Shown: positions 38,201 to 41,200 of the stretch, one piece after another | Layout of the letters: each line of letters starts with the position of its first letter | Position numbering within the stretch: the first letter of the stretch is position 1 | Assembly (NCBI GenBank): GCA_051362555.1 | Contig: CM120649.1 | Location: forward strand, 10,602,001-10,666,000 | Length of the DNA: 64,000 nt | Origin: Lingula anatina | Lineage: Eukaryota > Animalia > Brachiopoda | Direction: 5' to 3' | Position numbers and translations under genes: made by a program | Notes under the pieces: generated by a model | The model's input: the letters and a program-made list of their open reading frames with translations, nothing else | Databases searched by the model: none | What the model was told of the DNA's origin: nothing

Positions 38201-41200
38201 TTCCCCTAAAAAAACAAGTAGTATCGTTAAACTTGCTGATATATCGACCATGTTATAGAGCTCACATTTTCTCATAGTGGGCAATAATCAATCATCTTCA
38301 CAATTTGGAAGTTGATCAGCGTTACCCCGGCCCCAAAATTAAAACATCTTAACCAAGTTCATCCATTCTCCCTATCCATCAGAGATCCCTTACTTTGCCT
38401 CCAGTCAGCAGCTAGATGAGTAACATAGGCGTGACAAATAACCTGCTTTCATGTACATGAGCACCTCCCCTTTTCCGATCATTAATATTTTTCTTAAAGG
38501 GATAATAACTCTTCGTATGAGATCTATATTTCACAATAAAAACATTGTAAATAACTCATAGAAATATAATATGTTCTGTTTTACGACAAAAACAGCAGTT
38601 ATAGCAATTATTCTGATATCTGAGCTTGTCTTCAGATCACGTGATCCCCATTGATGACTATACTCTGTTATAATCTCTTAAGAGATTTTAACAAAAAACC
38701 AAACGTTTTAGAAAAAAAACAGGTACTAACTCTGAATGTAAAAATGAATTTATTAACCATTGGTAAGTATGGGAAAATTGTTGTTTACTCCAGGAAAATT
38801 CATTTTTTGGCCAAAACGAAGAGTTATTATCCCTTTAAGTTTCGAACCTATAGTATTATTATTATTATTTTTTTTTTATAACAGAAAGGTTATTTATAAG
38901 TCTCACTCCAACTAAAGACTTACCTCTTTCAAAGCCGGTGATATCAGGAACGCGGCTCCCCACATGAACTGTGTGTCTATGTCATACGTTGTAGGGTCAC
39001 CTGGGAATCTGAAATTGTGCCAAATTACTTATAATTAGATGTTCGTGTACATGACACAAATAACAGTAATAGTTTTAAGTTATTTTATTTGATTAATCAA
39101 TACCATCTCCTGATTGCGCTGTCAATTTACGTTAAACTGCTGTATACTTATAGTCAACTTAATTCTGATTATTCGGGGTGTGGAGGCGGGAGGGGGGGGG
39201 GAGGTTGTCCTAGAATCGATAAATAGGTCTAAATAACAGGCGTATCCAGATTTCAGTTACGAGTGATTGAAAAATTACCATTATTGGAATTTGTCGGGGT
39301 GGTTGATCGAAACTGTTGCTTCAGTACTTTTCACCATATCGGTAAAAAGCAATACAGTAGTCATGTCGTTTCATTTTACAATGATTACATGCTATGAAAT
39401 TACATAGAAATACTATGAAAATTTGATTGACTGTTTACTTGAAAATACAATTTATTGGCTTAATTTAAAGACATATTCAGTAACAAAGCTGATGCTTGTA
39501 ATTCAGCATTAACAACATCATCCGCACATTTTTACGTCTCATCTAGCAAGTTTCTATATGGATTTTGTAGAAGCGTCACAATCATGTTCGCATAGCATAT
39601 TGAGCGAAGACCCTTAAGATAGATATTTTATTTATTATGAATTGTGAGCAGAAGCACACTAAATAAAGAAAACATTATTTTCCTTTTCAGAATAACAGCA
39701 AGCCAAGCAGTCAAAATTGAAATGAAGTGATAATAATATTTGGGGTGTTCAGGGGTGTTCAGGCGCCTGGCTTCACATCCAGTGTTGTTAAGGCCGGCTA
39801 GTCCATAAGGGCGAAAGGTGAAATTAAGTAGCTTGCCGGTGACCCGTAGATCACTCAAGCCAACATCTCCTCCCCGTGGCACACCCTGGAAACTAGGTCC
39901 TAGCGGGCCTAGGCTAACGAGGCTCTGGCTAATGGAAGGAAAACCCTGATATAAAACCTACCGCGGGGGGCCAACAACCCTCCCGGTTCAAATAATTGTT
40001 ACAGAAACCACAGAAACTTGTGGCCTTATGTCCCACACGGGACGAAGAGGAATGACGATGATGATAATAATATTTACAAACATCATTAGTCAATTTATTT
40101 GCCCCCCAAAAGCTGTGACTGATCTGAACTCCAAATTAGTCAATTTCCTCTGAGCAGACAGTCATATAGAACATTTTCCACAGTTTGTACGCTCCCGCAT
40201 GTGTACTTCCTATTTCCACCATCAGTTCATGAACAGACAAACGAAATCTGGTTGCTATAATTTAACGTCGATTGATCTATATGTCATTTATATATTATGT
40301 CGAGAGTGGGGTTAGAGTCTGTGTATAAATGAGATTTCTTTTTTGTCCAAATATTCCAATCCTGCCCCTTTCCACATTGGTGGCGGTATCTTATCACTAC
40401 ATCATCAGTGTGATGATTGTGATTGACGTCTGCTTAATTAAGCGTCAATCAAACCACTCACACTTGACAGCATTGATTGGCACCTATCAATTACGGGAGG
40501 TAAAATATCCATTGCGGAGTGATTATTATTGACGTATTTTTACAACCGTCAATCAAGCTGTCATATTTGATGGATTTGATTGGCACCCTTCAATCATCGG
40601 AGGTAAAAGTTCCTTTGCGGTATGATTATGATTGACGTATGTTTACATAACTGCCAATCAAAACACCAAATGTTTGAATATGATTGACGGGGTATGTAAG
40701 TTGGAACTATCATACTTTTCTCGTTTTTTATAAGTTAGACCCATTCCGTATACCTCAGTATATTCCAACATTGGTATTACTTGGCTTTGATTGCCTTTAG
40801 AAGGGATTTAGAAAAAATATTTCCATATCAAAGGCCTTAAATGTAAAGTCTCGTTCAAACTTTTTCCCCGTTCAGGAAGATCAACGTTTTATATAATCGC
40901 TGCTCTGTCCTCGCACAAGGCAAAATAAGCACGGGTGATAAAACAAACGGTGGCGTTTAAAATGTACATAAGTCCAACATGTGGCGAAAAAAAAACTTTA
41001 TTCAGCCAAGGAAGACGAACGTTCGATGGACAAGATTCGCAAAAACGAATAGATAAATGCAGTCCTGACGCGGAGTGACCCGTTTCCACGGATTTCAAAT
41101 TAAAAAATTCCAAGAAAGACATATCAGATATGCATTAGAGATATTAAAAAAAAAAAAAAAAAAGCCCGCGGAGTTCTCGAAAAAATAGCAAAGGAATAAT

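Follow-up and report, generated by a model that had tools for sequence, protein, structure and literature searches.

A polymorphic LINE-derived insert with a predicted HDV-like fold at its 5' end in a GH31 intron of Lingula anatina

The insert and its host intron

The window, that is, the whole stretch of 64,000 nucleotides analyzed here, carries a gene for a sugar-cleaving enzyme of family GH31 on its minus strand. A 320-bp insert is located on the plus strand between two of the exons (Table 1), antisense to the host gene. This orientation had been claimed in the preliminary description and is borne out by the flanking minus-strand exons, matched by PF01055 and PF21365. No effect on the host gene is expected, because the insert is antisense and mid-intron. 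The insert is enclosed by an exact 14-bp target-site duplication (TSD), TGATAATAATATTT, found by repeat search at 39728–39741 and 40062–40075; the coordinates given earlier for the TSD, the insert and the HDV-like motifs agreed with the sequence and the repeat search. Altogether, 13 exact 14-mer repeats spaced 200–600 nt were found in the window, and the other 12 were local duplications or tandem or simple repeats. The GC content of the insert was 53%, compared with 31% and 37% in the 500-bp flanks. No long sense ORF was found in the 320 bp. The small-RNA-derived head of a Pol III SINE was not detected in the insert either (tRNA search with ARAGORN, 0 genes; Rfam, none). The first 10 nt, GGGGTGTTCA, are doubled, with copies starting at 39742 and 39752.

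Contigs of four DNA runs carrying the same species label (X1, X2, X4, and X9) were compared with the window. In X9, a single-copy contig with 15 differences along the left flank joins 39728 to 40063, skipping 334 nt and retaining one 14-mer. This contig is the empty orthologous allele, and the insert is a polymorphic insertion. The left junction of the insert was present with 0 differences in X1, X2, and X4. In one X1 contig from another locus, the P1 strand seems to be repeated over 8 nt before 39751.

The insert is nested in another, multi-copy repeat (39617–39741 and 40076 to about 40215), whose depth reached 40–160 times that of the flank at 39635–39661, with many loose ends at 39617. Other copies of this repeat join 39741/39742 to 40104–40108 with a single 14-mer in X1, X2, X4, and X9. 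Over the insert body, the depth in the DNA contigs was about 7–12 times that of the flank, and over the last 45 nt it was several hundred times, which is the profile of a 5'-truncating LINE.

Table 1. Positions of the insert, its predicted parts and the neighboring exons in the window
Feature	Position	Strand	Basis
GH31 host exon on the 3' side of the intron (approximate extent, from the reading frame)	38915..39028	-	PF21365, E 3.9e-8
Left target-site duplication, 14 bp	39728..39741	+	Exact repeat; empty-allele joint 39728->40063 in X9
Duplicate of the first 10 nt, a possible alternative P1 5' strand	39742..39751	+	Repeat search
Predicted P1 5' strand	39752..39758	+	7/7 pairs with 39881–39887; predicted cleavage-site G: G39752 (or G39742)
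Long J1/2 insert, several possible hairpins	39759..39857	+	Folding energies against shuffles
Predicted P2 5' strand	39858..39867	+	4-pair core 39864–39867, 5-pair extension 39858–39862
Predicted P3/L3/P3	39868..39880	+	Two C-G pairs; base mismatched (U.C here, U.U in relatives)
Predicted P1 3' strand and P1.1 GG	39881..39889	+	GG at 39888–39889
Predicted P4 hairpin, 8 pairs	39893..39912	+	Folding
Predicted J4/2, GCUAAC	39913..39918	+	Predicted catalytic C39914; Rfam RF00094 consensus has GGCuAA there
Predicted P2 3' strand (GAGG core, TGGCT extension)	39919..39930	+	Folding
Rest of LINE 5' UTR and coding start	39931..40019	+	17-residue peptide frame at 39968–40018; breakpoint 40019
Last 11 codons and stop of LINE ORF, small hairpin 40030–40043, (TGA)n tail	40020..40061	+	ORF-end match
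Right target-site duplication	40062..40075	+	Exact repeat; starts TGAT, as does the tail
GH31 host exon on the 5' side of the intron (approximate extent, from the reading frame)	41615..41764	-	PF01055, E 4.6e-6

Elsewhere in the window, a full-length LTR retroelement, gypsy-like in look, was seen at 18299–23071. Its 284-bp LTRs (18299–18582 and 22788–23071) are 99.6% identical and a 1320-aa frame (18607–22569) is open; given these features, the element is probably young. A RING-finger exon and long low-complexity exons are located at 23410–32283, and by eye this region looks like an RNF168-type ubiquitin ligase gene.

The LINE termini of the insert

As judged from its letters, the insert is composed of a LINE 5' UTR with the ORF start, followed by the last 11 codons of the ORF and a (TGA)n tail. 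The peptide of 39968–40018 was compared with 120 LINE proteins, and its best match was the N-terminus of P0009, GPTTLPRQNTFVTET (a short peptide, ranked without E-values); besides P0009, 3 of the first seven matches were also N-termini. The 11-residue peptide of 40020–40055 matched the C-termini of P0001, P0009, and P0026, and P0009 has both peptide motifs. The motif [DN]RxxW..[AG][LI]C ends 57 of the 120 proteins, which were the best 120 of 1260 homologues. At the nucleotide level, 32 of 34 nt of the tail were identical to the end of the reverse transcriptase (RT) ORF in the loci L079 and L080. The LINE at L079 measures 3.2 kb, encodes an endonuclease and an RT domain, is interrupted by a few breaks, and is flanked by a 13-bp TSD of its own.

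Within the host species, X9 and X4 contigs depart from the window sequence after 40019. RNA reads entering the tail from upstream gave the consensus RDRAKWKEVT-VALCPT (translated by hand; 27, 6, and 34 reads in X12, X15, and X18, respectively). Since the tail-entering reads encode RDRAKWKEVT, a partner LINE is present in the host species and seen in RNA. RTE elements have one ORF of about 1000 aa, which encodes endonuclease and RT and runs into the tail. This architecture fits, and together with a by-eye likeness to RTE ends (PMC2887409, supplement 3) it makes the RTE clade the likely place of the partner. The earlier claim of mobilization by an RTE-type LINE is thus supported by the matches of both ends to LINE protein termini and by the same-species loose ends. 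At the DNA level, the 5' part of the element aligned non-significantly to L079 (loose gaps; 139/300 shuffles scored as high). The 5' link therefore rests on the peptide motif and the same-species contigs.

On its minus strand, L079 has the same ORF termini and a different 5' UTR in the first ~200 nt after the 5' TSD, and no HDV-like match was found in this full-length relative. The different 5' UTR beside the same ORF termini suggests that 5' modules may be exchanged among such LINEs. L079 and L080 belong to the loci L077–L119 of G001, a 17.8-Mb bin labelled as a Metamycoplasmataceae MAG; the bin had 54 matches to a LINE protein and long microsatellites, and much of it looks like animal host DNA. 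In the genome contigs, the exact tail had 0 matches and a degenerate tail pattern was found at 4 loci, all in animal-like DNA within one bacterial bin. The viral contigs had 0 matches to the tail pattern, the 5' UTR motif, and P0009. Among solved structures, the search found L1, R2, and one RT without a name; none was labelled RTE. Base pairing between the two ends of the element was considered and rejected: the longest complement was 7 nt, equalled in 366/1000 shuffles.

The predicted HDV-like fold and related copies

In the predicted fold, GGGGTGT pairs with ACACCCT (39881–39887) over 7 pairs with a G.U first pair, starting from either 39742 or 39752. The L3 stretch reads CC-TCCCCGT-GG (39869–39879), of which TCCCCGT (39871–39877) fits the pattern U-C-C..G-Y. 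A P1 of 6–7 pairs with a G.U first pair, L3 with P1.1, and a candidate catalytic C in J4/2, as in HDV-like ribozymes, are all present in the sequence, and P3 has 2 of 3 expected pairs in this copy. The P4 pair probability was 0.92–0.95 when folded from 39742 and 0.69–0.71 from 39752. Nested folding gave a P1 probability of 0.2–0.6 and a P2 probability of 0–0.13, by a method that cannot fairly score a double pseudoknot. The folding energy of the long J1/2, -25 to -27 kcal/mol, does not surpass that of shuffled sequences (z 0.0 to 0.5), and five variant positions inside the hand-drawn helices of this segment keep or improve pairs.

The descriptor used for scanning was built from HDV/CPEB3 features after the sequence had been seen. 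With one P2 mismatch allowed, its sole match on both strands of the window was the P3 at 39868. It had no match in 3000 dinucleotide shuffles of the element and 5 matches over 20 whole-window shuffles. With one P1 mismatch and a perfect 4-pair P2, it matched nothing in the 172,826 bases of the overlapping loci L077–L119. Rfam, run on 39000–41000, returned no ribozyme at E ≤ 10; its 7 matches were taken as chance. About three diverged tandem units of ~103–106 nt with internal inverted repeats lie at 40407–40690, to which the chance hairpin matches are attributed. One match to a 21-nt core of the fold in the viral contigs fell in a phage-like coding stretch and was likewise taken as chance.

At 39860, 39865, 39880, and 39933, copies related to the element carry letters other than those of the window throughout the aligned depth of five DNA runs, and nearly all copies do so at 40056. 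Every RNA read covering the first four positions carries the relatives' letters (14/14 at 39860 and 39865), so no RNA read can be assigned to the window copy. The majority allele has C at 39865, and the A of the window copy breaks one P2 core pair. With the relatives' letters, P2 consists of the core CCUC/GAGG (4/4) and the extension AGUCA/UGGCU (5 pairs) with an internal loop, compared with 3/4 and 5 in this copy, and the strict descriptor matches. Even the majority allele has a mismatch (U.U) at the P3 base and no more than 4 pairs in the P2 core. The window letters at these positions may be private to this copy; an assembly error is also possible, as contigs drop rare variants.

The three RNA runs yielded 46, 22, and 108 aligned reads, most of them on the tail, and reads of relatives align from the bin 39749–39760 onward. 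No pile-up of read starts was seen at the body depth of 1–7, a depth that says nothing on cleavage and gives too little material for a reading of the strand.

The preliminary description had proposed an HDV-like fold at the 5' end with the element starting at G1, and the motif order and the TSD adjoining G1 agree with it; the descriptor scan that it called for gave this single site in the window. Its P2 register, AGCC..TC/GAGGCT, is replaced by the register seen in the related copies. Its suspicion that the copy may be impaired was well placed: a P2 core pair is lost at 39865 and the P3 base is mismatched, and the fold as modeled is likely impaired in this copy. In R2 ribozymes, P2 is 5 bp or longer, and about one in three has mismatches there (PMC3774820). 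Ribozymes with a long J1/2 are described as fast only with a stable insert and an extended P2 (PMC4908430), a requirement that, applied to the window element, would cut both ways.

A scan of metagenome contigs with the 21-nt core served as an outside control and gave 76 loci (L001–L076), all in one assembly from another animal. They form a different short family, in which only the core aligns with the window element. As the loci were selected on the core, its presence in both families carries no independent weight, whereas the start at G1 and the changed helices do count as independent evidence. The copies are about 180–250 nt long and TSD-flanked (e.g., L003:2096–2310, plus strand). A compact textbook HDV-like fold, beginning with G1, is predicted for their first ~85 nt. 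Next come a short body and then a tail whose terminal simple repeats vary (CACT, CAT, CAC, and CAAT). Conservation jumps from 0.30 to 0.93 at G1 (67 heads), and one of these heads (L023) has a 24-nt repeat. A TSD of at least 9 nt was found in 27 of the 41 copies with both ends, and 16 of these TSDs end exactly before G1. P2 is fully paired in 56/68, the catalytic position is C in 65/68, and the median length to the tail is ~204 nt. P2, P3, and P4 differ from those of the window element in both strands, with the order kept. Rfam RF00094 matched 3/10 tested short-J1/2 relatives from this family, weakly (E 0.7–0.9), and missed 7/10. No RTE-type tail was found in L001–L076. The family may be related to the mollusc LP-SINEs, whose LINE-derived head of ~70 nt has been interpreted as a promoter (PMC4758252); four supplement files contained no match to the 10-nt tail motif of the L001–L076 family. 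The family had no match in G001, an absence that is uninformative.

Origin of the copy and known systems

We consider it highly probable that the locus holds a polymorphic, TSD-flanked insert that joins ~270 bases from the start of a single-ORF LINE, likely an RTE, to ~42 bases from its end, with a predicted self-cleaving HDV-like 5' fold that is likely impaired in a one-off or low-copy derivative. Direct observations in its favor are the boundaries, the empty allele, both LINE termini, the motif order, and the relatives with an intact P2 core. Cleavage, read-through transcription, the clade, and the timing of the interior loss we infer. The parent LINE would be transcribed by read-through, and the ribozyme would cut just before G1, fixing the 5' end. 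The LINE protein would bind the 3' hairpin and the (TGA)n tail, reverse transcription would be primed at the target beginning TGAT, and the interior would be lost at 40019 through deletion or a template switch. The loss may have taken one of three routes: a master copy that was already deleted was copied, the template was switched at insertion, or the deletion followed insertion.

The depth at the breakpoint bears on the first route. Of the depth at 40013, 214/248 in X9 (~86%) and 211/290.7 in X4 (~73%) lie on contigs that depart after 40019. The remainder equals about 1.5 (X9) and 1.9 (X4) times the single-copy flank and, depth not being copy number, leaves room for about 1–2 copies of the 40019/40020 junction in each run. 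Most 5' ends thus appear to belong to longer elements. Because most depth past the deletion point enters other sequence, the insert is likely a deletion derivative that arose once or exists in few copies. It had been proposed earlier that the insert represents a non-autonomous family, and this is so far not supported: among the contigs and reads listed, none joins the 5' part of the element to the tail across 40019. An amplified family, in which a deleted master with this same junction is transcribed, cleaves itself, and is copied in trans, is accordingly regarded as unlikely. Bipartite RTE families are common (PMC5786205; PMC7245038) and the five letters differing from the majority allele could stem from a diverged master, but this reading has to contend with the departing depth, and no second copy was found within the 64-kb window.

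By the third route, a full-length LINE was inserted first and ~3 kb of its interior was lost later by DNA repair with the TSD kept, so that the element never moved in its short form. The same anatomy would be expected, the junction looks low-copy, and the parent sequences share one base at the junction, plus ACT one base apart. No allele with a longer insert was seen at this locus, in contigs too short to reveal one. The doubled head would point to template switching during insertion, and a late deletion seems to us improbable, though a realistic course of events.

A reading put forward with considerable doubt is that mini-RTEs are made afresh at insertion. RT would pass from the tail to the ORF start, proceed to the ribozyme-cut G1, and then switch onto the cut 5' end, doubling the head. 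Template switching would recur at the end that the ribozyme makes. The low-copy junction and the doubled 10-nt head of the window element (39742–39761) are hints in this direction, as are the X1 contig with its own doubled P1 strand and the single doubled head among 67 in the L001–L076 family. If true, it would explain why bipartite elements are spawned by the ribozyme-bearing clades (RTE, Ingi, and R2) in particular, and how ribozyme heads come to be grafted onto unrelated tails, as in L001–L076.

For the fold itself, it is rather doubtful that the whole family has lost cleavage and that the 5' end is set by an internal promoter. The U.U at the P3 base, the 4-pair P2 core, the unstable J1/2, and the low nested-fold probabilities would suit such a relic. 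So would two published cases: drz-Agam-2-1 is slowed about 175-fold by a shortened P2 with a long linker (PMC4908430), and the first 77 nt of L1Tc/NARTc are both promoter and ribozyme (PMC3383444). However, among the variants listed from five DNA and three RNA runs, none breaks P1, P1.1, L3, P4, or the catalytic C, and the L3 variant at 39877 is still a pyrimidine. A mismatch in P3 is also on record for an R2 ribozyme (PMC3774820). In one X9 contig, eight changes occur in phase and leave every drawn pair unbroken; the four that fall in J1/2 keep or improve hand-drawn pairs. The sole double change (39796/39837) counts little as covariation, because both are CpG transitions. A chance order of motifs within an ordinary LINE 5' UTR is very improbable: the descriptor was written post hoc, gave 5 matches in 20 shuffled windows in its relaxed form, and has no Rfam match beside it, but none of 3000 element shuffles matched, G1 adjoins the TSD, relatives repair P2, and the unrelated L001–L076 family has the same core in a textbook fold starting at G1.

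If the head cleaves, it would be one more natural HDV-like ribozyme with a long J1/2, with an unusual U.U P3 base and a split P2, and a natural loss-of-pair allele would be available for comparison. The element bears on the question raised in PMC5786205, whether ribozyme-bearing LINE clades spawn bipartite elements mechanistically or appear to do so via sampling bias. As a natural template of 320 bases, it also marks the cis sequences that may be required when an RTE-type protein acts in trans. This has a practical side, since a two-RNA gene writer has been made from RTE-1 (PMC13708176). Both bipartite RTE derivatives and ribozymes at RTE 5' ends have been published before (PMC5786205). The literature search, which left Repbase and most subscription journals outside its scope, returned no test of the ribozyme in a bipartite RTE mini-element.

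HDV-like ribozymes have been described at the 5' ends of RTE elements (PMC6765202 and PMC3774820, both citing Ruminski 2011) and, among LINEs, of R1, R2, R4, RTE, Ingi/L1Tc, and LOA (Ruminski 2011, via PMC5786205, PMC6765202, and PMC3774820). The window element resembles them in the predicted order P1-J1/2-P2-P3/L3-P1-P1.1-P4-J4/2-P2, the G.U first pair, a predicted extended P2, and a predicted cleavage site at its first base, and shares a long J1/2 with drz-Agam-2 (PMC4908430). It differs from them in the mismatched P3 base, a P2 split into 4+5 pairs, and a J1/2 that is not unusually stable.

SIDEs and template jumps have been described (PMC3414825), and the earlier note compared the insert with R2 SIDEs. 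The comparison is apt as far as the predicted mode of action goes: R2 SIDEs, R2/R1 hybrid SIDEs (PMC3414825), and NARTc (PMC3383444) likewise combine a ribozyme with a 3' recognition end, have no ORF, and depend on a partner LINE. The insert is nevertheless not a SIDE, as it lies in a GH31 intron and not in 28S rDNA with R2/R1 ends, and has no rRNA match. R2 SIDEs are rDNA-specific and NARTc is derived from the trypanosome L1Tc, whereas the window element, with its RTE-type ends, is intronic and nested in another repeat.

Lepidopteran RTE 3' fragments (PMC2887409) are similar in that the ORF continues directly into a (TGA)n tail and, by eye, in a C-terminal AQDRxxW motif and a GGCCT(T)ATGTCC stretch. 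Lepidopteran RTEs likewise have many 3' ends and few full-length copies; the fragments, in contrast, are 5'-truncated and without the 5' end.

In anatomy, the insert is close to the bipartite RTE LINEs Bov-A, RTESINE1/2, WALLSI3, and MAR4_MD (PMC5786205), which keep the extreme 5' and 3' ends, lack the interior, and have no small-RNA head. RTE is one of the four clades that yield such ORF-less elements, and a 5' ribozyme has been proposed to explain the retention of the 5' end (PMC5786205). The insert likewise has a LINE 5'-end part, an extreme 3' part with a simple-repeat tail, no ORF, and a TSD of the TPRT type. It differs from the known families in its apparently low copy number, in its doubled head, and in a fold that can be spelled out base by base.
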